A DNA stretch of 64,000 nt from Auanema rhodensis (Eukaryota > Animalia > Nematoda), in contig OZ059897.1 in assembly GCA_964057225.1 (NCBI GenBank), forward strand, positions 11,408,001-11,472,000. The letters are read 5' to 3'. The position numbers and the translations under genes were made by a program. A model generated the notes under the pieces. That model ran no database searches, was not told the DNA's origin, and saw nothing but the letters and a program-made list of their open reading frames with translations. Positions within the stretch are counted from its first letter, which is position 1, and each line of letters opens with the position of its first letter. Shown here one piece after another: positions 9,001 to 63,366 of this stretch.

Positions 9001-9192
9001 TTTCACAAAATTTGTTATACACAACCATTTTGGGCCATTGTTCATCTGCATATTCATGAACATTTGTGCCGTTTTTTAACACAACTGTTTCAAAGTCATA
9101 AAATATGAGCTTAAACAAGGAAGCATTACATTTGTAAAGATAACAACTACAAACCTTGAACTTTTCTTGCTTCTTTTTTAGCTGAGCCTTCT
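6047..9192 (-). pseudogene. Protein-primed PolB of copy A (spliced, partly deleted, interrupted by Tc1-2)
   Basis: Motif C YT|DTDS across intron 6527-6569; KAKGV|TLD across intron 6278-6320; KVYSY; exonuclease motifs YDFET and AHNGSRFD. Confidence 0.9.
6631..7665 (+). mobile_element. Tc1-like transposon 2, 5'-truncated; transposase pseudogene (stop at 7114, QQEND)
   Basis: FTDESKF and SPDLNPIEHLW motifs; right TIR ...TCGCACATGACTG followed by TA at 7666. Confidence 0.92.
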
Positions 9193-14800: not shown

Positions 14801-16823
14801 CCAACTATCTTAAAAAGCGAATTAATTTATTTTGTTTTTGAACGAGGAAGTTCAACTTTTTAAGGTGGGGCGATGTCACATCGGCAAGCACATGGTAAAC
14901 ATGTGCGCGCTATTCAAATAGCGGGAGCCTGAACAAGCCCCGCCTACAACATGGGACACACATGACACTCTTGCTTCTGGCCTAACCCAGATAGGTTGTC
15001 TTATAGTCATGTGAGTCTCATCTCTTTATCATCTATATATATCATCTATATATATCATCTATTTAATACTTTATTATATCTCTTTATATTCTTTCTTAAT
15101 TTAATTCTTATATTGTACTTTCTTGTTATCTGATAATGAATCCTTTTCTCTTTAAGTATTTGTCTTAATAAGGAAATCGGGGCGTTCGGGTCTGCCTACC
15201 TAAGGAACAAGGTAGAAGTACATATATCTTCCGACCATGAGAAGACGGGAAGAAACAATATGTAACGCTTTTCCTCCCGAGGCAGGCTCTCGAGCCTGCG
15301 CATGGATCAAAATGCATGATTTTTTTAAAATCATTCTTAAAGTTTTTTTTTTAATGTATTTTTAAAATTAATTCTTTTAAATGTACTTTTAAAATTATTT
15401 CTTTTTAAATGTATTTTTAAAATTATTTCTTTTTAAATGTATTTTTAATATTTACATATGTTTTAAATATTATTATTTAATTATTTTTTTTAATGTATTT
15501 TTATATATTTTTAAAATATTATTAAAATTATTTCTTTTTAAATCTATTTTCAATATTTATACATTTGAATAAACTTTTTAATATATATTGTTTTAATTTA
15601 TAAAATTTGAATATAAATTATAAAAGCTAATCAATATGTTCACCGTACTTCTTACGGGTTAATCAATGGAACTCATATCGAAGGTTAATTCGATAAGATA
15701 TATTTTATACAATTATTTTTTAATTTTATTTGTTTACATTGTTTATAGTTTGTGTTTATTATAGTTTATAACTATTAATTTAACTTTTAAAAAGTTTGTT
15801 GTTTTTCTAGGCGAATCATTTTGTTCACCGTACCTCTTATGGGTAAATCAATGGAACACATATCGAAAGTTAATTCGATAAGAACGATATGAAATACAAT
15901 AGTTAATGGAACACATATCGAAGGTTGCACTGACCCACACAAGAACCACATGGCAAACGTTTTGTTCATTAATATATGATAAATAGCTGTACACCACATG
16001 TACCAATTTGTCTAATATTTTCAAATTACATGAAAGAATAGTTTAAAGAAATTGTTTTAAATTTTATTTTAGTATATTCTAATATACTAACTCAATAAAA
16101 CACATATCGAAGGTTAATTCGATAGGATTCACAAACAATTGTGTTGTTTCCAATGGAACACATATCGAAGATTAATTCGATAAGATCGTTAAAACAGGTG
16201 CACTGACCCACACATGTACCACATGACAAAAGTTTTGTTCATAAAAATATGCTGCTGTACAGCACAAGTACCCATAACGCTAAAAAGAATACTTACCATG
16301 CCAAGGGGTCATTGGTATATACTTTTTAGTATCAAAAATGTTAACGGAACACATATCGAATATTAATTCGATGAGATTGGTGAAACTGGTACGTTGACCT
16401 ACAATGAACCAAATGGCAAAGCACTTGTTCATTAAAGTATAACAAATAGCTGTATAGCATATGCATCAAAATTTCTAATATTCTCAAATTACGTGGAAAA
16501 AAGAGTATATAGAAATAGTTTTAGTGTGTATATTACTAATATTCTAATACACTAACTCAATGGAACACATATCGAAGATTAATTCAATAAGATTGTTGAA
16601 ACAGGTGCGCTGACCACAACAACACATGCGTATTTATTAACAACGGATTGGTAACTGTCACTGTTGACAGCTGTAATATGATACAATGTTGAGTGTTGGC
16701 AACATTGTTACGTGACAATAAAACAACTGACTGTTCTTGCAATGAAGTGTAATATAAATGTGTAAAATGAAATATGGATAACTATCTCTCAGAGTTTGCA
16801 TAATTTTATTCTAACAAGATACA

Positions 16824-26733: not shown

Positions 26734-29700
26734 TCATAATGTTGCAGCAAGCTTTTTGATGAGATCCTTATGTACTTTTCTCATCTTTCCTTGACTCATT
26801 TCCAATTCCACATATGAGTTGTATACGCCTGTAATTTTGAACGGTCCATTATAGGTGGGTCGCAATTTGCCGTGAATCGTCATATCCTTCAATAGTACCA
26901 TTTCACCTATTTCAAATATACGTGATGCTATTCGGTTACTATTATTCAGCCGATTTTGTTGTTCAATTGATTTTAATTGAATTTTTTCTTGAATAGAATC
27001 CCAGGTATTTTTCCGGTTCTCATTTCTTTCCAATAATTCGTCATCTTCAGGAGAATTTAGATGAGGTTGTCCTGGTAATTGACGGTCCATAGGTAGGCGT
27101 GCGTCTCTTCCAAATAAAGCAATGTATGGGCTGATTCCGGTAGTTGTACTTGGGATTGTATTTAACGCGAATGTGATTTTAGGTAATTGTGAGGCCCATT
27201 GAGAGACACGGTTTTCAGCACAAGTGGATAAACATTCCTGGATGGTTCGATGTAGTCGTTCCACTTGACCGTTTGTATTTTTGTGATATGGCAGAGAGAA
27301 GGTTTGTACAATTCCAAATTCGTTGCACATTAACTTGAATTCTTTAGATATAAAATTTCCTCCATTGTCAGACACGATGCTCACTGGTGGTCCAAAAATG
27401 AAGACGAAATTCGTCAGGAACTTTCGGACTGTTTCTTCGGCATTCTGTGTGCGTAAAGGTATGCTCGTTATCCATTTCGAAAAAGCATCTTGAATAGAAA
27501 GAATATATTTAAATCCATTAGTGCTAGGGGAAAAAGGTCCTGTCACATCCATATGAATCCTATCAAATGGTTTTTGTGGGGTAACAAACTTTCCATATGG
27601 TTCTCTCGTTGTATCATGTTGATTTATTTTCCTTTTTGCGCATGTCAGGCATTGGCTGACGATCTCTTTCGCATCTTCCATCATATTTGTCCAATGGAAT
27701 CTTCTTGATAATGCTGCATGTGTTCTTTTGATTCCTTGATGCGCTCCAATTCTTGCGTCTTCATGAAAAAGTTTCGCAAGTACTTGATTCAATGTCTTTT
27801 GTTTTGGAATCATAATCCTTGGAGAAAGATATTGTTTGTTAGGTCGAGCATGTAAAACTCCGTCGATAACAATATATCTATCGCTATTAATCTGTTTAGG
27901 TTGTTCCGTTAACATATCAGCAATAGTTTCCTTAATCCATGGTGTTCCTTGTTGTAACTGAATTAGTTTGTCGGTATCCAGAGTTTCCACATTGGTTACA
28001 TTTATGAGATAGTTGATGGTTTCTTGGATATCCGTTAAACTTGTTGTTGGCGTTGTCTTCTGTAGCTTCGGTTTAGGACCATCGTTAGCTTCGTTGCCTA
28101 TGTATCTGGATAGTGCATCACATACACTATTCATACGTCCTGGACGGTACATAATCACAATATCATATTCCTGGATCATTAACTGATATTTCGCTAGTCT
28201 TCCAATAAGATCTCTTCTACTCATTAGACTGGTTAGTGGTCGATGATCCGTTATTAGCTTAGTTGACGTGCCTAAAACATATGTGCGAAATTGTTGTAAT
28301 GCGTAGACGAGTGCCAAAGCTTCTAATTCGATAGGTGGGTATTTTCTTTCTGTAGGTGAGAGCTTCCTACTTGCGAACGCAACAGGGTGTAATCCGTTTC
28401 CTGTATCTTGTAGTAAGACTGCTCCAATTGCAATAGTACTAGCGTCACTTTCAATAACAAAAGGTGCTCCATTTGTTGGTGGCTTCAGAACTGGTGCTGT
28501 GCATAGAGCTTTCTTGAGAGTCTCGAATGCTTTTTCACGTTCTTCCGTCCATTCGAAATCTTGATCCTTGTGTGTGAGTTGATACAACGGTTCGGCTATT
28601 TTGGCGTAGTCTCTGATGAATCGCCGAAAATAATTTGTCATTCCAAGGAATGAACGAATAGCGGTGACCGTTTTAGGAGTTGGAAATTTCATAACGGCTG
28701 TAATTTTTGATGGATCAGGTTGTATTCCATCACGACCAATTATAAATCCAAGAAATTTAACTTGTGTAGCTGCAAATTTGCATTTACTTAGTTTTGCTTT
28801 CATTCCTAATCCTTGTAAAGCTTGTAACACTTCTTCTATATCCTCCAGATGTTGTTCAGCTGTGTTTGATATAATGAGTAGATCATCCAGATAAACAAAA
28901 AGTCGACATTTTACTTGATTTTGCAAATAGCGAACAGCTGATTGAAATGTATGTGGAGCTCCACAGAGACCCATCGGCATTCTGCAATATTGATAAACTC
29001 CTGATGAGGTCACAAATGCAGTGAGGTGACGGTCTTCTTCACGTAAAGGAATTTGAAAAAATCCCGATACGAGATCGATGTTTGTGAAGTATCGAGCTCC
29101 TGCAGTGCTGTCGATTATTTCTGGTATATGAGGAATAGAATAAGTCTGTTTCTGTGTGACACTATTGAGTGCACGGAAGTCCGTTACAAAGCGGAATGAG
29201 TTGTCTTTCTTCTTGACTAAGACGACTGGACTTGTAAAACTTGATGTTGATGTTTCTATTACTCCTTGGTCCAGCATTTCTTTTACTTGACGTTCAACTT
29301 CATCCTGTTTACCCAAAGGAACTCGATATGATCGAGATTTGGGCAGGTCCATATCGGTTCTCAAAGTGATTGAATGTTCTATTGGTCCTTTGAATAATCC
29401 AATGTTCCGATCTTCGTTAAAAAAAGCATTTTTGAATCTTCTCAACATAGTTTTGAGATTTTGACGTTGATTTTTAGATAGATCCGTTGATTCGAATTTT
29501 AAGTTATCGAAAGGATTCTTCTCAAAAATAGGCAATTTATCTGACCAATCAGCTTCTGGTGGAATATAGTCCGGTATATGTGGGATTCCAATTTCTTCTG
29601 CTATTTTTCCTTTTCCAATAATGGTGTTTCCTGTTAACTTCACCTCATAATTTGCTGTATTGATGGCGAATATTGTGAGTGGTGAAGTCTTGATAGCAGT

Positions 29701-32700
29701 AGGTGTGAATTGAATAGGTCCATTTCCACATCGTATAAGAGCGTATTGTTTTGGTTGTAGTTCTTTTGCCAATTGTAGACGAATCATAGCTTTAGTTCGG
29801 GGTGGAATAATAGATTCTCTAATGTTTATAATTGAAACGGTGTCTGAACTGATGCGAAAGCTCTTCTGGTTAGCGGATAATAATGGTAGAAAATGGTTTC
29901 CAACTATTAATTGCTTGCGTAGAGCTTGTAGAGAAGTTGTTATTCCTTTTTCTTCTAATGCTTTCATGATGTCCAAACCAAGTAACATTTCAGTAGGACA
30001 ATGTTTATCCTCAGAGATTAAAAATGTGTGTGAAAGATGGTATCCAGCAATAACAATGTCCAACGTTATTGTACCCAGAAAGTTGAATATTGATCCATTT
30101 GCTGCGGTGGCAGAGATTTTAGTTGAGTTGAAATTCTCTTTTCCTAAATAGCGTACTGATGATTCCTTCAAATATGAAACAGATGCTCCGCTATCCCATA
30201 AAGCTACGAGTCCTCTGCCTTCTGCTTCGATTCTTATATATGGGAGTTCTCTTTTGTTTGTTGCACAGCATCCAACAAAAGGTATAATAATAGGAATAAA
30301 AGTGATGACAGTAGGAAAATATCTTCGAATAGTTTCATCGTCGGCTGGAACATCGATGTCAGCGTTGAGTAGTTCGTGTTGTTCAACTGCATTCACATTT
30401 AAGATAGGAACTTTCTCTTTGATATAAGATACAACAATAATGTATAATGCTGATCCAAAGATTAATATAACTATCATAACACCTGCAGAGATAAACATTC
30501 TGTTGAGGGATCCAGCAAAGAAATCAACTCCTCGTTCCCATAGTGATGATGCAATATTTTGAGTAGAACTAAAAAGTTCGTTACTTTTTGTAAACCATTC
30601 TGATAAGCCTGGCAAATTCGCTTGATTCGTGATAACTCGTAGAAAATTTCTATGAGGATTGGTAGCGAAAATGTGTCCATATGTTAAGCTTATTGTTCTA
30701 ACTAAGTTTTCATCGGTGATATTTTCATAAAGATTTCTTTGTGAAAATCGAATGGCTGCTAGATCGGGATACTGATCTGAACCAATGTTTAAAGCAGTTA
30801 CGTTTGTAACTCCGTTGAGGGATTTCCATTCTCCATCCTCTTTCCATATATCATTTTCTACTGTTTCACATGGAATTTCAGTTCCATATGCTTCCAAATC
30901 TGCTGAATCTTGAGGTGCAAAGTAGAGGCGGTCATCATCCGTGATGACGGGTGTTTCTAAATAACACTTATCCTTGTATGTGTGGTTGCGATAAATGTGA
31001 ATTGGTTCTATTGGCTGACAGGTTGAAACCCGAATAAGATTCCGTCCAATTATTCGAGCCACTACATCATCTCGTTGCATAATAGATCGGATAGCAATCG
31101 TAGGATTGATATTAAATATAGCTTGCCATGTCTTAATAAGTTCAAGTTGAGCATGACATATGCTGTGATGTTGATGATGAAATTCTTCGACCAGTATGGT
31201 TCTCATTCGTTCAAATCCATAGTTGAGTTTGTTGATGGTAGTTAATGCATCTCGATGTCGAAGTATAGTATTCTGGTGATCAGTTAAGTGAGTGCCGAAT
31301 AATTCTTGAGCTTTCTCTATGCTTCCAATCATGGGTTGCATTGATGTCATCCCTTGAATAGTACTAATTGTTTGTTTTGTAGTAGATGATGTATTTACAA
31401 CAGGTTTTGAGGTAGCACTAAGAAATCGTGCAGTTGGCGTAGTTTTAGTGGTGATAGAGCGACTGAATACTCTTTTTGTAATCTCTTCAGGTGCTGGTTT
31501 TGAAAACCATGACATTAAATCAGTTAATTGTTTAGCGTCAATATTGATGTTACGGCTGTAGAGATCTTCTTTATTCGAAGGCATCGGTATTCCAAAATTG
31601 GTTTCTCGGTTTCTGAGTGTCCAGTTATCCAACAGCTTTAATTTCATTTCATATACTTGATCTTTCACTTGTCGTTGCATAAAATGACTATGAAAGAACA
31701 GTTTCATTCGATAATATTCTATCAGTTGAGGTTGAGAATACTGATAGCGTAGTTCACGAAGTAATTCTTTTGCTTTATATACCACAGAACGTGGATCTCC
31801 AAATGTGAAGTTGAGATGGTTTTGATATACTGTGAATATCAAAAATTCGAGTGGTGGCACATATTCTGTTTCGGATAAGATTGCAGGTATTTGTATCAAT
31901 TCCCATAATTTATCTCTTGCAACCGAAATTGTAGAATTGCCTGGTTTAACTATTCTTTTTATATAATTGATAGGAAGTCGGTGTGCTAGTTGACCGATGA
32001 CAAAACTAGGCTCCATTTGTTCGATCCACATTTTTGTAATCATCTTGCTTTCTTCTCCTCCTAGAGCATGTAGTAAGAGAATATTCGGATCGCGGAAGTC
32101 TTTTAAATTTGCCCAGTAATCTATAGTATGATCAGTAATGTTCAAAACATGGACAGCTGACAGCAAAAATTGATGATATCGAGCAATAACAGTCAGGTTC
32201 TGATATTCGTTGCTAACTGATTGATAGTGATACCAGTTATGAATATATCGTATGGTATTTCCGCCAGACGTGACAGTATATCTAGCAAACGGTAGATCCA
32301 ATATTTGAATAGGAGTTAACTTATATTCCATTTCTGAGCGAAATGACGCAATTAAGGATGAATTTGTTGAACGTTTATAGCGTTGGCGTGAAGGATCCAT
32401 TTGATTATCCAAATAACTTGTTAGATCCAGTAGAGAATATGCATGCGGATAATCAATAAACGAGACAAGAGTCTCAGTAGTGGATTCAAAAATTGGTGAA
32501 GAAAAACAAGATTGAGTTGTAGTAGATGCTGAGGTGTTGGCTAAGACAAGTGCTGTTTCTAGACTTGATATTAGCAGTGTTTGATCTCCAAGTATTCCAT
32601 ACAGAGGTCCAATACGTGTGTATTGGCATGGTGCTCGGGGTGTGGGTGGTTTCCAAACTACTGAACCATCTCCAAATGTACAGCTTCCCATTTGAGCTTT

Positions 32701-34260
32701 ACAGCCTTCGGCGTTGACAATTAAGTCAGATACAATAGTATTGTCCTTTAAATTTGTAATAACTCCTCGCTCCATCACAAATTGAGTTAAGTTGGCGCAT
32801 TGAGTAAAACTGAAGAAACGTTCCGGTTCATATACTGGCTTAGGAGCTTCATATGTAAGTGGATTAGCGCTCAACAGTTTTTCATTTTTCCATTTCTTGT
32901 CTCGAGCAGCTATACGGCATTCTTCTACAGATACATATCCATTACCAATGATGGTGTCATTGCTTTCTCGGAACCAAAATTGATCCGTTACACATAATCG
33001 ATAGATGCGTGTATAACATTTCCACGCTTCCCATGTTACGACGGTTTGTTTAGGAATGAACAATTCAACGTTAACTTGATGAGCTTGTTGAATTGCTTTC
33101 CGTTGGCATCCTGTTATCTCTGGTGGTGTCATCAGAATTCCTCCTTTATGAGCTAAACATAGTTGATATGAAGCATTCACAGTGGGAAGCAGAAATGTGC
33201 AGATTATTGTTGTGAGCAGGAATGGTAATGCAATAGTATTTATATTGAATCGAGGTTTCCATCGTCGTTGATTGCCTTGATTCTCTCTTGGATAATTGTC
33301 GCGATTATTCCTGGCAAAGTTGTCTCGATTTTCTCTTTGATAATTGTTGCGAGGTTCTCTCGAATGGTGATTACTCTCCATTGAGTAGTTGTTTCCATAA
33401 TTTTGTCGAGGGCCAGAGTTCCTGCTGAATTTATTTTTGAAATTCTTCCAAGGGTTTCTTGAATTGTTGCCATTGTTCCGTTCGAAATCTCGTGGCTGCT
33501 GATGGTTCCTTTGGTTCCTATTTTCCTTCATGGTGATCTTCTGAACTGCAGAGATCAACTCTTGCATAGTTGAGTTTTCTTCATGCTGTTTTTTATAGTT
33601 AGCACGAATTGCTTCTTCAAAACGTGCTGTCCTTTTTGCTTCCTCATAAGTCTTCGGATCTTTTCCTTGAACAATTATGCCTAAATCAGCGTTCAATCCA
33701 TTTAAGAAAGCTGATCTTAATATGAGCTCTCTTTCTCGATCAGTTGGGCTCATAATACTGGAAGCCATTTCTTCCAAGTATGAGGCAAACTGAGTAACAG
33801 TTTTCTCTCCTTGCGTCGAGCGTAGCAACTTCGCGATCGTGAAATTCCTTTCCGTGGCAGGGCAAAGTAACTCTGCCAATTGTGAAACAAGGTCTTTCCA
33901 AGGTCCTCGTTCACGAATTTCGAAAGGAATCGAGTTATATGCAGAGATCGCAGAATCATTCTGCTGAAGCAGCAGAGGAAGAAGAAAAATTCTTTCAATT
34001 ACAGAAAGTCCCGCAGCATTCGCGAATCGGTTAAATATATCGATGTACGATCGAAAGCTTCGGCTACCATCGTATTTGGGGCAGTGTGGACTGCCTAGAA
34101 CTTTTGTTAAGTTTTTGGTCAACTCTGGAGATGCCATTAAATTAGGCGTTTCCAGAGTTGAATCTCTGTTTGATTGCTCATGTGGTCTCATGTTGAGTAG
34201 GAGCTTCAGAGGTAGTTTTTCGCGCTGGGGAGTTTTTTCTTTTTTCGGTGTTACAGCCAA
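26734..34260 (-). CDS. Intact Gag-Env-PR-RT-RNaseH-IN polyprotein (2508 aa)
   Basis: Gag CA-like PKYDG...FLNGL; signal-like FLLTTIICTFLLPTVNA; furin RYKR; TM at about 30421-30498; LWDSGA; YLDD; RNase H ESDAS/ELEA/TDH/DALSR; HHCC, DDE and GPF. Confidence 0.95.
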   Translation of the reverse strand: MAVTPKKEKTPQREKLPLKLLLNMRPHEQSNRDSTLETPNLMASPELTKNLTKVLGSPHCPKYDGSRSFRSYIDIFNRFANAAGLSVIERIFLLPLLLQQNDSAISAYNSIPFEIRERGPWKDLVSQLAELLCPATERNFTIAKLLRSTQGEKTVTQFASYLEEMASSIMSPTDRERELILRSAFLNGLNADLGIIVQGKDPKTYEEAKRTARFEEAIRANYKKQHEENSTMQELISAVQKITMKENRNQRNHQQPRDFERNNGNNSRNPWKNFKNKFSRNSGPRQNYGNNYSMESNHHSREPRNNYQRENRDNFARNNRDNYPRENQGNQRRWKPRFNINTIALPFLLTTIICTFLLPTVNASYQLCLAHKGGILMTPPEITGCQRKAIQQAHQVNVELFIPKQTVVTWEAWKCYTRIYRLCVTDQFWFRESNDTIIGNGYVSVEECRIAARDKKWKNEKLLSANPLTYEAPKPVYEPERFFSFTQCANLTQFVMERGVITNLKDNTIVSDLIVNAEGCKAQMGSCTFGDGSVVWKPPTPRAPCQYTRIGPLYGILGDQTLLISSLETALVLANTSASTTTQSCFSSPIFESTTETLVSFIDYPHAYSLLDLTSYLDNQMDPSRQRYKRSTNSSLIASFRSEMEYKLTPIQILDLPFARYTVTSGGNTIRYIHNWYHYQSVSNEYQNLTVIARYHQFLLSAVHVLNITDHTIDYWANLKDFRDPNILLLHALGGEESKMITKMWIEQMEPSFVIGQLAHRLPINYIKRIVKPGNSTISVARDKLWELIQIPAILSETEYVPPLEFLIFTVYQNHLNFTFGDPRSVVYKAKELLRELRYQYSQPQLIEYYRMKLFFHSHFMQRQVKDQVYEMKLKLLDNWTLRNRETNFGIPMPSNKEDLYSRNINIDAKQLTDLMSWFSKPAPEEITKRVFSRSITTKTTPTARFLSATSKPVVNTSSTTKQTISTIQGMTSMQPMIGSIEKAQELFGTHLTDHQNTILRHRDALTTINKLNYGFERMRTILVEEFHHQHHSICHAQLELIKTWQAIFNINPTIAIRSIMQRDDVVARIIGRNLIRVSTCQPIEPIHIYRNHTYKDKCYLETPVITDDDRLYFAPQDSADLEAYGTEIPCETVENDIWKEDGEWKSLNGVTNVTALNIGSDQYPDLAAIRFSQRNLYENITDENLVRTISLTYGHIFATNPHRNFLRVITNQANLPGLSEWFTKSNELFSSTQNIASSLWERGVDFFAGSLNRMFISAGVMIVILIFGSALYIIVVSYIKEKVPILNVNAVEQHELLNADIDVPADDETIRRYFPTVITFIPIIIPFVGCCATNKRELPYIRIEAEGRGLVALWDSGASVSYLKESSVRYLGKENFNSTKISATAANGSIFNFLGTITLDIVIAGYHLSHTFLISEDKHCPTEMLLGLDIMKALEEKGITTSLQALRKQLIVGNHFLPLLSANQKSFRISSDTVSIINIRESIIPPRTKAMIRLQLAKELQPKQYALIRCGNGPIQFTPTAIKTSPLTIFAINTANYEVKLTGNTIIGKGKIAEEIGIPHIPDYIPPEADWSDKLPIFEKNPFDNLKFESTDLSKNQRQNLKTMLRRFKNAFFNEDRNIGLFKGPIEHSITLRTDMDLPKSRSYRVPLGKQDEVERQVKEMLDQGVIETSTSSFTSPVVLVKKKDNSFRFVTDFRALNSVTQKQTYSIPHIPEIIDSTAGARYFTNIDLVSGFFQIPLREEDRHLTAFVTSSGVYQYCRMPMGLCGAPHTFQSAVRYLQNQVKCRLFVYLDDLLIISNTAEQHLEDIEEVLQALQGLGMKAKLSKCKFAATQVKFLGFIIGRDGIQPDPSKITAVMKFPTPKTVTAIRSFLGMTNYFRRFIRDYAKIAEPLYQLTHKDQDFEWTEEREKAFETLKKALCTAPVLKPPTNGAPFVIESDASTIAIGAVLLQDTGNGLHPVAFASRKLSPTERKYPPIELEALALVYALQQFRTYVLGTSTKLITDHRPLTSLMSRRDLIGRLAKYQLMIQEYDIVIMYRPGRMNSVCDALSRYIGNEANDGPKPKLQKTTPTTSLTDIQETINYLINVTNVETLDTDKLIQLQQGTPWIKETIADMLTEQPKQINSDRYIVIDGVLHARPNKQYLSPRIMIPKQKTLNQVLAKLFHEDARIGAHQGIKRTHAALSRRFHWTNMMEDAKEIVSQCLTCAKRKINQHDTTREPYGKFVTPQKPFDRIHMDVTGPFSPSTNGFKYILSIQDAFSKWITSIPLRTQNAEETVRKFLTNFVFIFGPPVSIVSDNGGNFISKEFKLMCNEFGIVQTFSLPYHKNTNGQVERLHRTIQECLSTCAENRVSQWASQLPKITFALNTIPSTTTGISPYIALFGRDARLPMDRQLPGQPHLNSPEDDELLERNENRKNTWDSIQEKIQLKSIEQQNRLNNSNRIASRIFEIGEMVLLKDMTIHGKLRPTYNGPFKITGVYNSYVELEMSQGKMRKVHKDLIKKLAATL
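30421..33240 (-). other. Env region of family 1: class III (gB-like) fusion glycoprotein
   Basis: LNYGF..ICHAQ..WQAIFNINP..VVARIIG..VSTCQPI..CYLETP..EIPC parallels herpesvirus gB LQFTY..WCELQ..WNEARKLNP..VSARMLG..VSTCVPV..CYSRP..IEPC (gB sequence recalled from memory). Confidence 0.78.
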
Positions 34261-35609
34261 GTGTGTTGGCGTTTTTTCGTCGTCCGATGGACTTAAATCG
34301 TTGTCAAACGAGTCGTCACTATCGGGAAAAGGAAATCGAGAAATACGATTTCTCTTGTCTCTTAATCTTTGAGAGGTACGGAAAGGCGTATCCGTATAAT
34401 TATTCTTGGAGGTTGCCGTTTTGGAAAAGGAGGAAAGTCAGAACAATCTACAATGTAAAATAGTGGAATAAGTTAGTAAACAAGATAAGAATATGAATAG
34501 TTAATAGTGAATAAATTAGTGAATAACGTGAAAAAAAAAATCGAAGAAAAAAAAAAGATATATAATAATATGGGTTGAAGATTAATTAATTAATGAACTC
34601 ATACAAAAACAAACTATAGAGAGGAAAAAAAAAAAAGTGAATATAATTAATTGTTAAGATGATGATAGGATATGATTATGTGACAATGTGATTCATAAAT
34701 TAGAGAAGTGAGTATGGCGGACAAATCAAAATCTCAATTGTTACTGAATAACAATGAATTACCAAACAAGGCATCTTTCAAATTCCAAAGTCTTTGTTTC
34801 AACTTGAATCAACAATCAAAAAATTATGAGAGGAAGGTTTAAATTCAAATATGACAAATGATACAGCGGATGTTATTTTCTTACAGTGGCCATTCTGTTA
34901 GTACAAACTTGTAATCTTTATCAAAAATATCGCAAATTGACTTTATTAAGGTCCAATTTTGCTTATATCAAACAGCTTTTCCATTTCCAAAAAATATATA
35001 TTTTTCGCCACAATGAAAAATCAAAAGTACAACTGCGCAGAAACAAAAAGAAATCGAAAAGTTGGCCAATTCAGTATCTCACCCTTGCGCAAAATATCAA
35101 CCCTGTTTATTAAAAAAATGAGTGAGACCCTTCGTACTGAATTGGAAAGAGAGGTGGTAGCCCAGGGAAATAGCTCAAAAAAAGATTTATTATAAATAAA
35201 AAGCATTTAAACAATAAACAAATAAAGATAAAGATAAGTCCGCCAACTGAAGATTCAGTTGAATGGCAAGCTTATATAGCGAATGTTATCAGCATTTTCC
35301 ACGAAAGGTTATAAGTTGTCAATGACAATTATAACTATCTCAGAAAATGCTGAGGCTGCAAAATATAACTGATAACATAATACACTAAGACAAGAAACTA
35401 GAATTATAAAATATAAAATATAAAACACAGAATAAAGAAATACATAAAAATTATAGAAAGAATAAAGTAAAGAATTATAAAGTATTGCAAACATACAAAC
35501 ATAAGTTTTTTGTACGGGCAGCTGTCATTTGGTCAAACGTGGTCAGAAGAGTTTCATCGTTGTTACCATGAATCTGATAAAGAGTTTCAAGAGCAGTATC
35601 ATGAAATTC

Positions 35610-38906: not shown

Positions 38907-39305
38907 TGTAATATCCTTAAGTTGGATATTAATATTCCATGATTGACCCTTAGATTGATGTGTTGTAAAAGAAACAATAAGATTTGAGGAAGAGAGAAAG
39001 ATTTATTATAAATAAAAAACATTTAAACAATAAACAAATAAAGATAAAGATAAGTCCGCCAACTGAAGATTCAGTTGAATGGCAAGCTTATATAGCGAAT
39101 GTTATCAGCATTTTCCACGAAAGGTTATAAGTTGTCAATGACAATTATAACTATCTCGGAAAATGCTGAAGCTGCAAAATATAACTGATAACATAATACA
39201 CTAAGACAAGAAACTAGAATTATAAAATATAAAATATAAAACACAGAATAAAGAAATACATAAAAATTATAGAAAGAATAAAGTACATAATTATAAAGTA
39301 TAACA
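38907..39305 (-). repeat. Gypsy family 1 LTR (399 bp)
   Basis: Appears identical to 26278-26676; followed by GAAA, matching the GAAA before 26278. Confidence 0.95.
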
Positions 39306-40214
39306 GAAAGACTAGCGGATGTGGTCGATTTCTAACAGTGCAAGCAGATTTGGTTGATATTCAAAAATATAAAAAATTAAACGACGGCTATGCTTACATG
39401 TTGACCATGATTGATGTTTATACACGCATGTTATATGTTAGCCCTTTGAAAACTAAAGGTGGTATAGAGGTTGCTAGTGCATTTGCAAATTTATTCAAGA
39501 ATTTTATACCTATTCAGTTGATTACTGATAATGGCACAGAGTTTTATAATAGTCATTGTGAAAAACTATTCAAAAAGTTTGCCATACTGCACGGATCTAC
39601 AAGTTCACCACAAAAGGCTGCAATGTTGGAGCGAGCAAATAGAACTTTAAAAACACGCATGATGAAATATCTCTATTACAAGAATAATCATTGATGGATT
39701 GATATCCTAGATGATTTCGTTGAAGGAATAAACAAATCTTATAATAGGTCAATTAAAATGCGGCCCATTGATGTTAAAGCAAATATATACATTGAAGAAT
39801 ATGCATCAGCTGTTAAAAGCCGCTTTGAAATTGGTGATACTGTTCGCAAAAATAGGCGTACTTTTGAAAAAAGCTACGAGTCTGGATATACAATGGAGCT
39901 ATTCACAATTGATGAGGTTGTAACCGGAAACCCAACCGTGTATAAACTTGTAGATTATAATGGTGAACGTATAAAGGGAATATTTTATGAGCCTGAACTT
40001 GTGTTGGCTATTAATAAAAGCAACCAGTACTATATTGAGAAAGTTTTGAAAGAGCGTACACGAAGCGGTAAACGTCAAGTATTTGTAAAATGGAGTGGAT
40101 ATCCCGACAACTTTAATGAATGGATAGAAGCAGAAAATTTAAATGTATAATTTTTCAATGTTATAAACAATTGTAATTATAATAAATGATTTATTTGATA
40201 TATCGCATAATGTA

Positions 40215-44810: not shown

Positions 44811-46069
44811 CTTATTAATATTTTGTCGGATATCCAATATTATCTATCACTGCTTGAAGTCTTCTGGGCATTGATTCGACGAGCTTCTTTAGAATATCCG
44901 GTGATATTTCTAACCAGAGGGTACTGAGAACTCTGAACTTCTCATTTTTGTTGGAACAGGGAAACTTGGATGCACGTCGACCAAGTTTACTCCAAAGATG
45001 CTCAATGGGATTCAGATCTGGAGACTGGCTAGGCCATTGTAGCACATTCAGTCGATTTTCTTCTAGGAACTTAGTAGTCGAACGAGCTGTGTGTTTTGGA
45101 TCATTGTCCTGCTGAAGAATGAACCTATTTCTAGTTCCAAACTTCATAACAGCATACGGCAGGAAGCAGGTTCGTAAGATGTTCTGATAATCCTCGGCAC
45201 ACATCCTGCCTTCAACACGATAAAGTGGCCCAACTTCGGAAGCGCTAAAACAGCTCCAAATCATGACGTTGCCGCCACCATGCTTCACCGTAGGTCGCAT
45301 GAATTTACGGTTGAATCGCTGGTTTGGTGGTCTTCTTACGAATCTTGGTCCGTCGTTTCCAAATAAGCAAAACTTGCTTTCATCGGTGAATATAACGGAG
45401 GACCACTGTTCGAACGTCCAATTCAGATGCTTTTGCGCAAACGCAATCCTCTTCTGCCTGTTAGCAACGGATATCAGAGGCTTCCGAGCTGGAACACGAG
45501 CTCTTAGGTTTTTCGACAACAATCTTCGTTGTATATTAGAAGGATGTAGATGAATCTTGAACATTTGTAGGACATGCTGGCTTAACTCTAACGACGTCAT
45601 ATCCGGATGTCTTTCTATGAGTTTAATAATTAAAGAATCTTGTCGTACTGCTGTCTTTTTCTTTCTTCCCCTGGTTTCGTTCTGTTCAACTTGGTTTTGA
45701 TTGGTCCATACATTCTGAATCGTACTCTTCGGGATTCCCTGCATCTCACTAATCTTTCGTACGGTCAGCCCTTCATTTTTCTTTTCGATAATGAGGCTTC
45801 GAAGCTCTGGAGTAGTTTTCTTGCCCCTAACCATCTTAAATTATAAATTTTAATTTTTCATCATTTAAAACAACCAAAAAAGCATTATATTCAATTTTAA
45901 ACTTATATAAATTTCGAAAATTTCATTTTTCATCTTTGTCACTTGTTTTTTAATCAATATGTTGCTACTTCAACCTGAAAACTAAATTAAATTTTTTGAT
46001 TGGTTTGTAGTTTGAGTTTCGCCGTCTGGCCTCTCTTTTTGGTTGTCCCAACTATTTCGCACAGGACTG
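44811..46069 (-). mobile_element. Tc1-like transposon 3; 3' TIR replaced by a Maverick end
   Basis: 5' TIR CAGTCCTGTGCGAAATAG at 46069 flanked by TA. Confidence 0.9.
44815..45834 (-). CDS. Intact Tc1 transposase, DD34E
   Basis: FTDESKF, QQDNDPKH and SPDLNPIE with 34 residues between D and E; paired-like HTH N-terminus. Confidence 0.96.
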   Translation of the reverse strand: MVRGKKTTPELRSLIIEKKNEGLTVRKISEMQGIPKSTIQNVWTNQNQVEQNETRGRKKKTAVRQDSLIIKLIERHPDMTSLELSQHVLQMFKIHLHPSNIQRRLLSKNLRARVPARKPLISVANRQKRIAFAQKHLNWTFEQWSSVIFTDESKFCLFGNDGPRFVRRPPNQRFNRKFMRPTVKHGGGNVMIWSCFSASEVGPLYRVEGRMCAEDYQNILRTCFLPYAVMKFGTRNRFILQQDNDPKHTARSTTKFLEENRLNVLQWPSQSPDLNPIEHLWSKLGRRASKFPCSNKNEKFRVLSTLWLEISPDILKKLVESMPRRLQAVIDNIGYPTKY

Positions 46070-53481: not shown

Positions 53482-53902
53482 GAAATTTGTCATTAATAAC
53501 CTGCTACATTACGTGGCCAGTTGTCACATCTGCTAGCACATGGTAAACATGTGCGCGCTATTCAAATAGCGGGAGCCTGAACAAGCCCCGCCTACAACAT
53601 GGGACACACATGGCACTCTTGCTTCTGGCCTAACCCAGATAGGTTGTCTTATAGTCATGTGAGTCTCATCTCTATATCATCTATATATATACTCTATTTA
53701 ATACTTTATTAGATCTCTCTATATTCTTTCTTAATGTAATTCTTATATTGTATTTTCTTGTTATCTGATAATGAATTCTTTTCTCGTTAAGTATTTGTCT
53801 TAATAAGGAAATCGAAGCGCTCGGGTCTGCCTACCTAAGGAACAAGGTAGAAGTACATATATCTTCCGACCATGAAAAGACGGGAAGAAACAATATGTAA
53901 CG

Positions 53903-53915
53903 TGGAGGTTCCACC
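53903..53915 (+). promoter_or_regulatory. Primer-binding site, probably tRNA-Gln
   Basis: TGGAGGTTCCACC is complementary to the metazoan tRNA-Gln(CUG) 3' end GGUGGAACCUCCA. Confidence 0.8.
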
Positions 53916-55055
53916 TTGCTTACTCTACTGTTAATTTATTGACAGCAAGTTTACGAGACTTTTGGACTTAATTACCCAACAGTGAGGAGTAACCGAGCCG
54001 TGCACCATGATTTCCCCAAAAATTATTTTGGCTACCACTTCTCCTCCGCTCAACAAAAACTGGGAGGTGTCTGAGACGTTTGGGGAAACTATCAGACAAT
54101 AGTTTTGACGAGCGTTACCTTTTTGTTATGCACGCGCGTGCTATTTTGATTCATTACTTTATGATGTGAATGTCCAGTGTGGCAACAGAGCTCACTTTTT
54201 AGCTGAGTTGTTTGGAAGCTGGAGGCTGTTGGGATAATTTTATTTACGATTTTTTGATTTTGATTCACATCCAAGGGTTCATCAGGGTTCTACTCCTGTT
54301 AACTCTTTTCTTATTAGTTCAGAGATAATAAGAATATTTGAATTCCTACCCACCCAAGTCCACTCTACGTCTGCCAACGTTTCCTTTTTCCTATATTATT
54401 GACAGATTACTGAATTTAAATTCCTATATCAATCTTAAATTACCTTCTATATCTTTTGAAATTAAATTAAAAATTATCTTAATTAAGATTTATTTTGAAA
54501 TTCTTTCTACAAATCTTAATAAACTTTATAAAATTGAACTTAATATACGAGATGAGACATTTTTGTTTACTTTAAGCTTACTCACATTCAAATAGTTGAC
54601 CCACGCGTACCAGCTGTTCGACATGTGTAGTCAATAACAGCTGTTAAAATTCAAAAGTTTTCAAACAGGCTTAAGGCACCATCTGTGATTCCTTATTTGT
54701 CTCTAAGCTGACATTAGTGATTATAATATTCAAATATCACGACAGACGGTCAATGGTTGTTTACCATAAGCGCTAACATCTGGTGTCGTGACACATGGCT
54801 GGAGGCGGAGCTTGAAGCTTCAACGATCCTCCTTCATCAGACGCCATTGTCACAAACGTTTTTACTGGAGTCTAGTTGCTTCCAGTACGCGCTCTTATAT
54901 TCATCTAACTGTATTCACCAGCCACCCTGTCGGACTCGGACATCAGCAAGGAAAACAAAGATCAGGAACAAGGATCACCAGAGGTACGCCAAGTTTTTGA
55001 ATTTAATTCTAAAAACTTAAATACTCCATCCACCTACCTCTCTCCTTTTGAATTT

Positions 55056-58000
55056 TTGAGAGAAGAAGGTGATTCCTCTTCTTCTTCTCACTCTTCTTCT
55101 CTAACAATTAGAACGAGAAGTAAAAGCAGAAAGGCCATCACTGAGGAAACACCTCGGGCACCTACTACAGTACGAAATAGATCACCAAGTCGGTGGGCCG
55201 CTGCTATAACTAAAGCTTTTGAAAGAAAAATGACTCCTACCTCTCCATCTCCTAATTCTAATGTTGCTCCACCCTCTAGAAATATGGCAACTATTTTGAA
55301 TTGCCATCTCTGTCCCAGGTATGAAGGCTCTCGTAGCTTTCGTTCTTTTGTTGAATCTTTAAATAGATTTTTTAATGTTATGAATCTAAGCTTACCTGAG
55401 AGACTATTAATTTTGCCTCTTCTTTTGGAATCAAATGAAACAGCTCTCTCCTTGTATAATAGTATTCCTAGTGGCATAAGAACTAATGGCCCATGGATTG
55501 TTTTGATGGATCAGCTCACTGAGCTTTTAGCGCCTAAAACAGATAAAAATTTCACCATAGCGCTTATTCATCGAGTACAACAAGGAGATAAATCTGTTCT
55601 TGATTTTAGTATGGAATTAGAGAGAATGGCAAGCACCATAATGTCACCAACGGATCCCGAGCGGGAACCAATGTTGAAAACGGCATTTTTAAATGGTTTA
55701 AAAGAGGAACTGGATATTGCGGTTTTAACTAAAAACCCCGCCACTTATGAACAAGCTAAGAAATTAGCTAGGTTTGAAGAAGGCGTTCGAAATAGCTTCA
55801 TGAAAAGAAATGAAGACACCAGCACCTTGAAGGAGCTCATAAATGCTTTACAGCATAAATTAAGCTTTAGTGAAGAAAGAGAAAGAAGTAGGAAAAATAA
55901 TAATAATAAAAATTATAAAAATAATAAAAATAATAAAAAAAATAATAACTGGACTCAGCACAATAATGGCTCTAATGATTATGAGCGAGAGAGAGAGCGA
56001 CCTTCTGCCGTACGTTATAATAATAATAACTCGCAGAACGGGAATATGAATAGGCGTCCTAACCCGGGAAACCGCCCATTTGCGAATGGCAGAAATGCCA
56101 ATAGCTCGTCTTGGAACCCTAGGCCAAGTTCCCCAAGAAGACAAAGACCATCAGCCAATGGGAATGGTAACTCAAGGGTATACAGCGTAGCGACCCCATT
56201 CATGCCACCGGTCACGTTGTGCCTGACTTTATTGGCACTCTCATGCCTTCCCTTTGGGTCGGCAAAATATCAGATTTGCGCTCAATCTGAAGGGGGTATA
56301 TTAGTAACACCTCCTGTGGTCACAGGCTGCCATAAGGCAGAAATTGAAAAGGCTCACAGTGTTGAGGTAGAAATATATCTACCAAAGGCTGAGATAGAGT
56401 CATGGGAAGCATGGAAATGCTATGTGAAAAAGTATAAAAGCTGTGTGAGAGATTTCATGTTTTTGAGAGATCGTAACACCACATTCTCTCATATTAAAAC
56501 AGTAGATAAGAAAGATTGTGTTCGAGCACATAGAAATCGTATGTGGAATGATAAAATCATGAATGCCCAACAGCATTCAGTTTTTGAAACACCATTAAAC
56601 GAGCATAATCCAACTCGCTCTTGGTCCACTGAAGAATGTAGAAATTGAACAATTTGTATTGAAGCGAGGGAGAAATTGAACAATTTGGAGAAATGGAGAA
56701 ATTGAACAATTTGTATTGAAGCGAGGGATAATAACTAGATTGAAAGAAGATCACATTGTATCAGACTTATTTATAAATACTGATAATTGTAAAGGAAATG
56801 AAGGGTTTTGTGCAACTGGTGAAGGTGCAGTTATCTGGCAACCACCTATCCCATTAGTTGTCTGTCACTATCAAAAACTTGGCCCCTTCTCCGCCATGTT
56901 GGATAATCATATTCTTCTAGTTCACTCTATTGAAAGCGCTTTTGTTCTCCAAAATCATTCCACATCCGCTCACGTTCAATCTTGTTTCGAATTCGCTGTT
57001 TTTGAATCATCTTCTGAGGCAATTATCCAATTCACAGCATATCCCCGTGTTTATAATTTGCTTGATCTTTCCAATACTTTGCTTAATGCTGATAGACGCA
57101 GAAATAAACGTAATGCATTACCTCAAAAACATCGCTCTTTCAGTGATGATTATCTTTTTGTTAATGCGAAATCCCAACCATATGCGTTTCCATTTCTAAG
57201 ACCTACTTTCATTTTTGGATCTGCATCTATCACTAAGTTTTACGCAAAATATATGAGATATGCAGCTACATCATCTTATGAGAGTTTGCTCCAATTCGCG
57301 ATAGATAATCCACTGTTCATTGACACAATTGTTAGTTTAGGATTGACAAAAGATCATATAACTAACTGGGCGAAGTCTAATAATTTCAAAGATCCCAATC
57401 TTTTGATTTTACAATGTATGGGTATAGAGGAAATTAAACTGGCTACTAGACAGATGATTAACAGCATGAAATTGGATGATCTTATCACTCAAGTAGCTCG
57501 TCGTATAGAAGTTCCTCGGTTAAAAAGATCGTTGAGGAAATCTACAACATCCATAGAAGACTTCTTTCGAGGAATGGCTCACGCAGTAGTATATCAAGCC
57601 ACAATTCTTGATGGTACACAAACAGTTCCATCAATCGAACAGTTGGCCAGAGCCTTATATCCATCTATATTACCACGCAGTGGAAATATGAATCAATCTG
57701 AAATTATTGCAACTGCTCAAGGCATGTTATTCATGATCCAACAACAATCGGGAAAAGAACAAATATCTCGTGACATGCAAGTCAGTCGACAACAAAAAGC
57801 TGATGCTACTGTTAGAAACAACCAAGAGCAAGATTTAGCAATTATATCCAAGCTGCCTGACTATCACAACCTTTATACAAAGAATAGTACAGCATATTAT
57901 GGATTTCCTCCACAGTCCATCGAATACCCACAGGAAAATTCTAAATTCAATAAAACAGAAGTTTTAGAATTTATAAGTTGGGTTAAAACTCAAATTACAA

Positions 58001-61000
58001 CTGATAAAAATATGTTACATCATACTACTGTAACCCCAATAACTGCCACCAAAACTACAATTCGTAGTTTAACAACTCCTACCCCTAATGCGTACGAGAG
58101 AGGTCGAGAGTTGTATGTAGCAGAAGTATATGACAATGTTCTCCACAAATCAGAGCATAAAACTAAAACGATAATAGATAATAAGTTGAATTATGGGTTT
58201 GAGAAAGCGCGTCTCTCCATAATTGACGAATTTCATCAACAGTTTCATACCATCTGTAAATCTCAAATGGAAACTGTAAAAAGCTGGCAAGCTATATTAC
58301 GTATACATCCTACAATAGGAGTACGAGCTATGCTTCAGCGGGATGATATCGTTGCCCGATTTGTTGGAAGAAATGTTTTAAAAATAACAACTTGTCAGGA
58401 AATAGAACCACATTTCATTTATCGTAATCATTCTTACAATGATAAATGTTATGCAGAGACCCCTGTTTTAACACACGATAAACAATTATTATTTGCTCCT
58501 ATCGATAGCTACGATTTGAGCACTGAAGGACATGAGATCAATTGTGAACACAAAGAGACAGAGATTTGGTATGAAAATGGAACATGGAGAGATTATAAAG
58601 GTGACACACATAAAGTAGATAGTATTCATTCAGAAAAACATGATCATTATGCTGAATTGAGTAAACTTCGATTCACAGGGCGGAATTTGTTTGAAAATTC
58701 GACTGAAAAATCCTTAGCCCTATCTATTGGATTAACTTATGGTTATAGTTTATCTACTTCACCTCACCATGATCTTCTCCGCGTAATTTCTCGTTCACGT
58801 GATTGGCCTCAAATTTCCTCTTTCATCTTCAAAGGAAGTAAACTTATAAGAGATGCCAGGAAAATTGTTTTCTCCAACTGGGATCTGTTCATTGACTTTT
58901 GTATAGGTTCAATTGAACGAACACTCATTACCATCGGTTGTATAACTCTGATATTATGTCTAATGATAGCATTATATTTCACTATAAAATGTTATCTCTC
59001 CCCTACTTCTATGTTAAAAATAAACCATATCATGTTGAGCCCAACAGCTCCACCACTTGAGGGAGATGAGATTCATGAAACAGTTAGTGATGAATTGATG
59101 CGGAGCTATTTTCCCACCATCATAACTTACATTCCTTCAGCCATACCTTTTGTATGTCACACAACAACAAAGAAAAATGGACACATGTTACCGTTTGTTC
59201 ATATTGACATTGAAGGTAGAGGACTGTTAGCATTATGGGATTCTGGAGCTACGATCTCATATATTCCGTTCTCCACATTGGCATATATTGGAAGACAATA
59301 TTTTACAAAATATTCTAAATCTGCATCCACTGCAAATGGATCAGAGTTTCGCTTTGTGGGAAAATGCAAGTTAGATGTGGGTATAGCAGGTTACCAAGTG
59401 GAACACGAATTTTTAATATCTGAAGACAATGACTGTCCAGGACAAATGTTACTTGGTACTGATTTTATGCGTACGTTGGAAGAAAGAGAGATATTTACTA
59501 CATTAAAACTATGTAAAGGAAAGTTGATTGTTGGTAATATGGAAACACCCTTAGTAAAACCTGGTTGTTTTGCATATAAAACCACAACTAAAACAGTAAA
59601 TATCATAAGTTTGTCCACAGTAACAGTTCCACCACATAGTACATCCCACATATCTTTGCAAACAGGACCAGAATTAGATTTTGATCAATATGCTCTTTTA
59701 AAATCTAGCACAGGTCCTATCTCAATTCCAGATGCCGCCATAGGACCTTTTCCTATTACTATGGTAGTATCAAACAATTCTTCAAAGCCAATTAAAATTA
59801 ATAAAAATGACCACATTGGTTCAGGACTTATAGCATCTAAAGAAATTATGAACGATTATGTTCCACCTGAAGCTGATTGGGAAGATAAGTTACCAACTTT
59901 TCCTCAGCATCTTTTGGATGATTTGAACTTCAATTCTTGCACTCTGTCTCATAAAATGAAGAAAAATCTGATCACAATCATTAAGGAAAACCAAACGGCA
60001 TTTTTCAACCATGATCATAATATTGGTCTCTTTTGCGGACCAGTTGAACATGCCATTCCTATAAGATCCGATATGGATTTTCCAAAAAGTAGATCTTACA
60101 GAGTACCATTGGGTAAGCAAGAAGAAGTAGAACGGCAAGTGAAAGAAATGTTGTCGCAAGGTATAATCGAAAATTCGACGGCTACTTTCACTAGTCTGGT
60201 TGTTCTTGTAAAAAAGAAAGATAATTCTTTTCGGTTTGTTACTGACTTTAGAGCATTGAATAGTGTTACTAAGAAACAATCATACAGCATCCCACACATT
60301 CCTGATATCATAGACTTAGCGGCTGGAGCTCAGTTCTTTTCGAATTTTGATCTCATTTCTGGTTTCTTCCAAATACCGTTGAAACGCTCAGATAGATACC
60401 TAACTGCTTTTACCACTCCATCAGGTACCTATCAGTATTGCCGAATGCCTATGGGATTGTGTGGAGCGCCACACACTTTTCAATCCGCAGTACGATACTT
60501 ACAATCTCTTGTTAGATGCAAACTGTTTGTATATCTAGATGATTTGCTAATAATTTCGAACTCAGCTGAAGAACATTTAAGAGATATACAAGAAGTGCTG
60601 AAAAAGGTCACTGAACTAGGGTTAAAAATAAAGTTATCTAAATGTTGCTTTGCAGCCACTGATGTAAAGTTTTTGGGTTTTGTAATAGGTAGAAATGGTG
60701 TTAAACCAGATCCTGCTAAGATACAGGCTGTTTCCGAATTTCCAAATCCAAGTACAGTTACGGCTGTCAGATCCTTTCTAGGTATGACTAACTATTTTCG
60801 ACGGTTTATTCAAAATTATGCCGGAATAGCTGAGTCATTGTATAAGTTAACACATAAGGATACTCCTTTTGAGTGGAAATCGGAACATGCAGACGCATTT
60901 AAAACTTTAAAAACATTACTGTGTACTGCCCCTGAAGCAAATGACAGTCGTCCTACTAAACCAAAGGACAAAGTAAAACCTGTTAATGCTTTTATTGCTC

Positions 61001-62259
61001 ATATCACAACTATTTCTTCCATTGACCAACTAAATTGTGAAGAAATACGGAAAGTTCAAGCTGGAGTTCCCTGGATTCGCGAAGCACTTTCTCAAATTAA
61101 TAATGATAACTGTCCGGCTAATATATCAGACCGGTATGAAGAACGAGAAGGCATATTACATGCAAAACAAGCGAAAAATTATTTAAAACCATCTATTATT
61201 TTGCCGCGAAACGACAAAATAACTGATGTTGTCATCAAATTTTTTCACGAAGATTCCAAAATTGGTGCACACCTAGGTATAAATAAAACTACTGATGCGA
61301 TTCGACGACGATTCTTTTGGACTAATATGGTTCCACAAATAACTGAATTTATTAATCGTTGTACAAAATGTGCAAGTAGGAAATCTAACCCACACCAATC
61401 GTATATTCAACCTATGGGAAGATTTGTTATACCCGAAAAGCCATTTGATCGTATTCATGTAGATATACTAGGTCCTTTACCTCGCACTAATGATGGACAT
61501 CGATACATCTTGAGTATTCAAGACGCTTTTAGTAAATGGGGAACAACTTGCCCATTAATAACACAAACGGCTACTGAAATCACAAAAGCGTTTGTAATTA
61601 GATTTGTTTTCATATATGGACCACCAATGAGTATGATAACCGTTAATGGTAGTAGCTTTTTGTCATCTGAATTTCAAGCTATGTGTAAACAATTTGGAAT
61701 TAAACACACTACTACGCTACCATATCATAAAAATGCTAATGGACAAGTTGAGAGACTTCATAGAACTTTGGAAGAAGCTCTCTCTTCATTCGTGAATGAA
61801 CAACAAACTAACTGGGATATACACCTACCCAAAGTTATGTTTGTGATCAATACGTTACCAAACTCATCAACATCTATTAGTCCATATGTTGTATTATTTG
61901 GTCGGGATGCAAGACTTCCTATTGACCATCAATTGCCTGGAAATAATCCTCAAACTGAAGAACCAGCCAATCCTACAGAAGATTTTGTCAATAGATCGCT
62001 AATACAAAATGAAAGCACATATAATATAGTAAAAGATAGAATTGAAACATGCAGCCACCCTGTCGGACTCGGACATCAGCGAGGACAACAAAGATCAGGA
62101 ACAAGGATCACCAGAGCCATACCTTTTGTATGTCACACAACAACAAAGAAGAATGAACAACAGTACAATACACGAAATAGAACACAAAAAAAAGAAATTC
62201 AGGTTAATGACTTAGTTATGAAAAGTGAATTCTACTCGAAACAAACTAACATTATTTAG
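55056..62259 (+). pseudogene. Gag-Env-PR-RT-IN polyprotein: frameshift at about 56640-56715, in-frame RNase H deletion at about 60933, altered IN C-terminus
   Basis: Collinear with 26734-34260: signal LCLTLLALSCLPFGSA, furin RRNKR, TM 58921-58995, LWDSGA, YLDD, HHCC. Confidence 0.93.
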
Positions 62260-62968
62260 TTACAGCAGTTCAAAGATCTTTCGTCGTGGTTCAAATAGAT
62301 AAAGGAAAAAGCAGAAGAGTACACAAGGACTTTGTCAAACCTTATCAACGGACAACATTTATTCCGGTTATCACGATTTCTTGCAGGTAGTTTTTTTTAA
62401 CTAAATCAAACTGTTGAAATTTTTTTTTATTTTGTGCCATTTCTGATTGTAACACTTCTTTGTTGTTGATTGATTTTCTCTGAGAAGTCTGCTATTGCTT
62501 TACAAGGTTTTGTTTTATTACTCCAATTTTCATTGAGTAGATTTTTTTCAATATTCTCTTGTGAATCTTGCTATTTGTTATGCTTAATCATTACTTGTAT
62601 TCACCTTATGGACATTAGTCATACGGGTCAAACGAGTTTTTATTTTTTTGTACAGAACGGGCTCGATCTATTCTCAGGGTAACACCGTACCTGTACAACT
62701 CAAGAAAATGAACGACTATATCACAGTCGAATGGTTTAGAAGCAAAGCTCTCGTTTGCAAGCATTTCACTACTCAAGTGAATGGAATAGAATCTACTCGA
62801 TACTACATTTCAAATTCAACAAACTTGAAGAGACAATAGCTAAACTTTCAAATCGTATTGTATACATTATTTTTTATCGACTACACCATGATTTTCTTTT
62901 TCCAACATCCAACTATCTTAAAAAGTGAATTAATTTATTTTGTTTTGAACGAGGACGTTCAACTTTTT

Positions 62969-62980
62969 AAGGTGGGGGGA
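62969..62980 (+). promoter_or_regulatory. Polypurine tract
   Basis: AAGGTGGGGGGA immediately before the 3' LTR. Confidence 0.85.
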
Positions 62981-63366
62981 TGTCACATCTGCTAGCACAT
63001 GGTAAACATGTGCGCGCTATTCAAATAGCGGGAGCCTGAACAAGCCCCGCCTACAACATGGGACACACATGGCACTCTTGCTTCTGGCCTAACCCAGATA
63101 GGTTGTCTTATAGTCATGTGAGTCTCATCTCTATATCATCTATATATATACTCTATTTAATACTTTATTAGATCTCTCTATATTCTTTCTTAATGTAATT
63201 CTTATATTGTATTTTCTTGTTATCTGATAATGAATTCTTTTCTCGTTAAGTATTTGTCTTAATAAGGAAATCGAAGCGTTCGGGTCTGCCTACCTAAGGA
63301 ACAAGGTAGAAGTACATATATCTTCCGACCATGAAAAGACGGGAAGAAACAATATGTAACGCAGTT

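Follow-up and report, generated by a model that had tools for sequence, protein, structure and literature searches.

A probable fossil of spliced RNA in the integrase region of a nematode GAG-ENV-POL errantivirus

Nematode GAG-ENV-POL errantiviruses with an HSV/gB-type env were reportedly first described by Sacco et al. in 2022. In 30 of the 36 nematode rows of supplement 1 of PMC13524379, 8 of the 30 primer sites are of the Gln type and 2 have the same 12-mer as the element analysed here; the terms 'splic' and 'subgenomic' do not occur in the main text of that paper. Our literature search found neither a report of spliced pol RNA in nematode GAG-ENV-POL elements nor an account of protein balance in a single-frame gag-env-pol element; Sacco et al. 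2022, which may discuss expression, lay outside this search. Splicing is described for other retroelements. Foamy viruses make a subgenomic spliced pol mRNA from a suboptimal splice site, and their Pol is not a Gag-Pol fusion (PMC7828637). The Caenorhabditis elegans element Cer1 produces an SL1-trans-spliced 2.4-kb mRNA (PMC3315495, PMC10309623), and PMC5580714 reports no conserved splicing for Arabidopsis Ty3/gypsy elements. The SD' spliced RNA of MLV is co-packaged and reverse-transcribed, and spliced retroviral RNAs can integrate as retroelements in their own right (PMC2925334). For SERV-K/MER11, a two-crossover insertion has been described in which the template was left and rejoined within a few bases (PMC11379458).

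We analysed a 64-kb stretch of Auanema rhodensis DNA (the window), which contains an LTR element at positions 53522-63361 of the forward strand (family 2). Its 5' LTR of 381 nt (53522-53902) has 1 difference from the 3' LTR (62981-63361), which is preceded by a purine tract (62969-62980). The flanking 4-bp target-site duplication (53518-53521 and 63362-63365) is confirmed by the empty site in another Maverick copy. The primer-binding site (53903-53914) is of the tRNA-Gln type and identical to a 12-mer tabulated in PMC13524379. Pfam domains follow the order gag, gB-type env, PR, RT and IN, with an RNase H between RT and IN that is present in the related family 1 and deleted here. The env match to PF00606 lies below the curated cut-off, and in family 1 PF24664 is matched above its cut-off. 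A hydropathy scan places a signal segment and a transmembrane helix on either side of the gB-type env, the family-2 signal segment being below the scan threshold. In a tree of 27 rows, from which 5 proteins without an RT core were left out, the RT groups with Caenorhabditis, Auanema, Diploscapter and Heterorhabditis proteins (support 100/99), and the closest proteins, about 50% identical, come from the same genera. Judged by its LTRs, primer site, purine tract, target-site duplication, gene order, env and RT, the element is a nematode GAG-ENV-POL errantivirus of Ty3/gypsy type with a gB-type env and a tRNA-Gln primer site, and this copy of that known kind is defective.

The gag ORF with its signal segment and the start of env (54909-56648, +) stops at a break marked by iterated duplication of local sequence (about 56635-56731), and is followed by an env (gB-type)-PR-RT-IN ORF (56680-62259, +) with a transmembrane helix at about 58912-58998. 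RNase H is missing at about 60933 through an in-frame loss of about 133 codons relative to family 1, and the integrase C-terminus is broken near 62230-62260. The short local duplications at the env break (56635-56731, +) resemble polymerase-theta templated repair. The family-2 LTRs end in ACG and not in the usual CA (53902, 63361, 11860), and the element is inserted in a Maverick/Polinton-like copy. No close family-2 member was found in protein searches (best identities about 50%), and the env-PR search gave nothing shorter. Among DNA relatives, 1 viral-contig and 80 metagenome loci, none covered the pre-protease region, none of the 81 had an env or gag match and none gave an env-PR alignment; the junction pattern described below had 0 matches in viral contigs, and Atlas returned no usable match.

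The comparison element, family 1 (26734-34437, -), encodes Gag-Env-Pol in an uninterrupted ORF of 2567 codons. Both family 1 and the relatives carry Gag-Env-Pol in one ORF, with a signal segment and a transmembrane helix ahead of the protease in the hydropathy scan. Of the 5' LTR of family 1, the first 305 of 399 nt remain, and the primer site is missing; its 3' LTR has a further copy, with 100% identity, at 38907-39305. At 39233-40150 (+) a chromodomain ORF comes after a fragment of integrase, and the window also contains two Tc1-like transposase ORFs (1776-2525, +; 44815-45840, -).

The integrase C-terminal region of the family-2 element contains a 99-nt composite insert (62052-62150, +). 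Its first part, 62052-62116, is identical to leader sequence 54919-54983 at 63 of 65 bases, and its second part, 62117-62150, matches pre-protease sequence 59141-59174 at all 34 bases, the join lying between 62116 and 62117. The leader template starts at CAG, whose AG (54920-54921) is a candidate acceptor, and ends at a donor; the pre-protease template starts inside a conserved hydrophobic motif preceding the protease. The segment skipped between the two begins with GT at 54984 and ends with AG at 59140, so that the join corresponds to excision of an inferred 4157-nt GT-AG intron (54984-59140, +) spanning the gag AUG, gag and env including the transmembrane helix. These observations bear out the preliminary description, which had read the insert as leader joined directly to pre-protease sequence by excision of this segment, in frame within an integrase whose family 1 counterpart lacks it: the integrase reading frame is preserved through all 99 nt, and family 1 has no insert. 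Only the leader start had been placed one base too far, at 54918.

Two further copies of the insert, at 10539-10637 (+) and 13947-14045 (+), had also been reported. Both are real but count as one independent copy: they lie within a single 3.4-kb tandem duplication (8522-15339, 99.97% identical) that produced the third copy from the second, the latter being part of a 5'-truncated element copy (9993-11860). This duplication is either recent or an assembly artefact. The 10-kb copy and the 53522-63361 element agree in the two leader differences and in the break at the integrase C-terminus, yet their LTRs differ, so the insert is older than the latest transposition. In the 10-kb copy, the LTR shows 93% identity to the 5' LTR, while the internal part diverges by about 1%.

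Could such a join have arisen without splicing? A third jump of reverse transcriptase (RT), a polymerase-theta templated join or a copied deletion derivative might each have used the 2-nt AG microhomology between the two ends. This microhomology, raised earlier as a caveat, does exist, with 1 of 3 equivalent placements reading GT-AG, and the same copy bears further structural lesions including the iterated env duplication. As a null we counted, exactly, the distinct junctions that deletions within the element can produce, 35,061,520 in all, of which 0.33% can be read as GT-AG. Among the 1,850,615 junctions with a 2-nt microhomology, GT-AG was readable in 0.53% and GTR..YAG in 0.14%, and both sites were as good as observed in 0.024%, a figure for which site-quality thresholds were fixed after the site was seen. 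Because so few junctions of this class yield GT-AG, and fewer still sites this good, we consider a spliced origin of the join highly likely. Its formation without splicing is correspondingly very improbable; it stays unlikely when a factor of ten is allowed for the window's other junctions. No deletion derivative is present in the window, where the leader/pre-protease join is found only in the three insert copies.

Compared with the C. elegans consensus, the donor matches at 6 of 8 positions and the acceptor at 5 of 8, a moderate fit, but only that, to the 'nematode-type acceptor' proposed before. The motif TTCAG accounts for 8 of the 558 AGs in the element but ends 4 of 10 short candidate introns elsewhere in the window. 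This set of 43-48-nt introns is non-independent, had its donors pre-filtered and owes 3 of the 4 TTCAG cases to homologous copies. AT-rich candidates of this size occur at 19160, 19729, 35954, 49537, 51701, 8379 and 6320, several of them in Maverick/Polinton-like copies with DNA polymerase B and protease matches nearby.

We propose that the likely source of the insert was a spliced RNA of the element family (donor 54984 to acceptor 59141), which was likely copied into integrase by two RT template switches. During minus-strand synthesis, RT would have departed from the genomic RNA while copying integrase and moved, by way of imperfect homology in the pre-protease region, onto a co-packaged spliced RNA; having copied across the exon junction, it would have returned at the CAG homology. 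Apparent short homologies at both outer ends of the insert would fit the capture by template switching suggested in the preliminary description: at the 3' end, homology continues for 7 of 9 bases beyond the insert, and at the 5' end there is the CAG. That both leader differences occur in both copies fits a sibling RNA as template. The resulting non-autonomous lineage would then have been mobilised in trans; later spread of the carrier is evident from a clean LTR-to-LTR insertion with target-site duplication and from a second copy with a different LTR. The 5' boundary of the insert falls on the candidate acceptor at 54922, a weak hint that the captured RNA may also have been cis- or SL1-spliced there, as in Cer1 (PMC3315495).

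A splice product might instead have entered integrase by chromosomal break repair, using spliced cDNA or RNA or an integrated spliced retrocopy. The sequence cannot tell repair from the RT route, the duplication in env is repair-like, and the integration of spliced retroviral RNAs as retroelements is known (PMC2925334). The template was the element's own RNA, however, and not a random host RNA, which co-packaging would explain directly, and the carrier lineage was retrotransposing, as its target-site duplication and the 1 LTR difference in 381 indicate. Entry by break repair thus appears improbable.

In both families the longest AUG-free gap directly precedes the first gag AUG. In family 2 it covers 54796-55229 (+), with AUGs 435 nt apart and the first gag AUG at 55230, and it contains the donor; in family 1 it covers 34601-34192 (-). 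Both families also show an N-terminal extension that is open but contains no AUG, and candidate acceptors are present at 54922 and 34447. Together, the gap and the extension suggest that gag either has a leader processed by splicing or trans-splicing or starts at a non-AUG codon. In family 1, no donor scoring at least 5 was found between the leader acceptor at 34447 and the first AUG at 34191, and the leaders of the two families gave no meaningful alignment. Rfam searches with the leader yielded matches at chance level only, and its predicted fold was no better than shuffles (z -0.85). A leader 12-mer 66 nt past the 5' LTR (53968-53979, +) coincides exactly with the core of the primer given for SL1 in PMC3315495; an in-register comparison by eye gives 16 matching bases of 21, and 3 of 100 shuffles of the window produced an exact match. 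Mimicry of SL1, capture of a leader and chance are all conceivable origins.

The preliminary description had gone further and proposed that Pol is made from the spliced subgenomic mRNA. We lean towards the view that the splice is a family-specific side product rather than the main Pol route, and that a fragment of it was caught by RT switching. Pol itself probably comes from the single Gag-Env-Pol ORF, freed by the protease after the Env tail. Hydropathy places Pol after the Env anchor and on Gag's side, so a single ORF can supply it, and Pol would be releasable there by its own protease. The need to uncouple Pol from the membrane-bound Gag-Env, which had been put forward as the advantage of splicing, is therefore weak: an anchor ahead of the protease would already leave Pol cytosolic.

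That the captured RNA was a dedicated, foamy-virus-like Pol mRNA is possible but rather doubtful. The geometry lends it some support. Like the major donor of a retrovirus, the donor is found in a leader devoid of AUGs, upstream of the gag AUG. At 44 nt downstream of the acceptor is an in-frame AUG (59185), itself 5 residues ahead of the Pfam protease match. Of the good AGs downstream of the donor, 3 of 124 fall in the linker from transmembrane helix to protease. A cryptic acceptor chosen at random would seldom be located in it, which counts against a side product, though a position ahead of env, RT or IN would likewise have seemed meaningful. An RNA that is captured would also more likely be an abundant one. 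The reading frame, on the other hand, does not carry across the join. The donor is in phase 0 of the gag frame and the acceptor in phase 1 of the pol frame, so that reading on from gag stops after 29 codons, and by eye we found no canonical -1 slippery site that would shift the gag frame into pol after the join. The first three AUGs after the acceptor lie within 59154-59187 (+), and the first two, at 59154 and 59177, are out of frame (17 codons each) and precede and overlap the AUG at 59185, with 59177 in a strong A-rich context. In foamy-type pol mRNAs, Pol has its own favoured start codon, whereas here the in-frame AUG is the third, although an upstream coding exon might supply another start. 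The single ORF already encodes Pol, and this arrangement would give an excess and not a shortage of it.

Translation of a Pol mRNA of this kind would begin either at AUG 59185 through leaky scanning, in which case little Pol would be made, or at an AUG supplied by an exon further upstream that is joined to 54922. Gag-Pol lacking Env could also result, if the same acceptor were used by a donor at the end of gag (56167, phase 1). Either an upstream coding exon or this phase-1 donor would solve the frame problem; neither is singled out. We rejected as evidence the 71-codon open pol-phase frame upstream of the donor, which might be counted for a Pol mRNA, since another frame is open there for 85 codons and the signal is thus non-specific.

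The relatives speak against a conserved acceptor. The motif at the acceptor is present in 16 of 25 proteins examined (query included) and absent from the other 9. An AG at the acceptor boundary is impossible in 9 of the 15 motif-bearing relatives, intact family 1 among them, nearby alternative acceptor sites having been examined in family 1 only. The absence of an AG at the equivalent position of family 1 had been pointed out before, and our analysis agrees with it; the site is not conserved among the relatives. Hydrophobic codons supply the pyrimidine run, and a codon change could thus create an acceptor by accident. Two observations point towards a Pol mRNA. An in-frame Met precedes the protease in 4 of 6 relatives in which AG is possible versus 1 of 9 in which it is impossible (Fisher p=0.09), in rows that are non-independent and partly gene models. 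Family 1 has phase-1 candidate acceptors near the pre-protease boundary, at 30482 and 30344; it has no in-frame AUG from its transmembrane helix up to the active site of the protease. In sum, the preliminary proposal of a spliced Pol mRNA is favoured by the positions of donor and acceptor, but is weakened by a join out of frame with gag, by the two out-of-frame AUGs that come first and by an acceptor that most motif-bearing relatives cannot encode.

On the present sequence evidence, the insert is real and unusual, very probably a fossil of spliced RNA within a known kind of element, and it would preserve the exact coordinates of a splice that skips gag and env. Were this splice the regular source of Pol mRNA, it would represent a second origin of a strategy that a foamy virus review calls unique among retroviruses (PMC7828637). 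If it is a side product, genomic DNA can still preserve transcript junctions of retroelements. The wider proposal is that in nematode Gag-Env-Pol errantiviruses a spliced RNA, with its acceptor in the linker from Env anchor to protease, is the source of Pol, or of Gag-Pol lacking Env; this would be a foamy-like solution reached independently in Metaviridae. The proposal is tentative, and we regard it as unlikely on balance.

Compared with the nematode errantiviruses described in PMC13524379, the element has the same gene order, gB-type env, tRNA-Gln primer site and RT clade, and differs as a defective copy with a composite insert. What it shares with foamy viruses is the joining of a donor in the leader to an acceptor ahead of pol, which would set pol behind a leader exon in a subgenomic RNA and which is seen here solely in fossil DNA form. 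The differences are that the intact relative reads gag-env and pol in a single frame, that the AUG of pol comes after out-of-frame AUGs, and that the acceptor lacks conservation (PMC7828637). By the tests run, with a single-ORF fusion and splice sites that are not conserved, the carrier is not a foamy-type system. Ty1/copia elements with a spliced gag mRNA are similar in that splicing regulates the expression of a single-ORF LTR retrotransposon, but there splicing removes pol and Gag is favoured over Pol, the opposite of the join found here (PMC5580714). Cer1, likewise a Ty3/gypsy element of a nematode, has a single long ORF and undergoes alternative cis- and trans-splicing; in contrast to the join described here, its splicing removes pol and makes CERV, its sites are conserved across species, and its Gag and Pol are made from unspliced RNA (PMC3315495, PMC10309623). 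The MLV SD' RNA (PMC2925334) and SERV-K/MER11 (PMC11379458) provide the precedents for capture, whereas in the A. rhodensis element only 99 nt across the exon junction were retained, inside its own integrase. By analogy with these cases, the carrier would work like a retroviral capture of spliced RNA.
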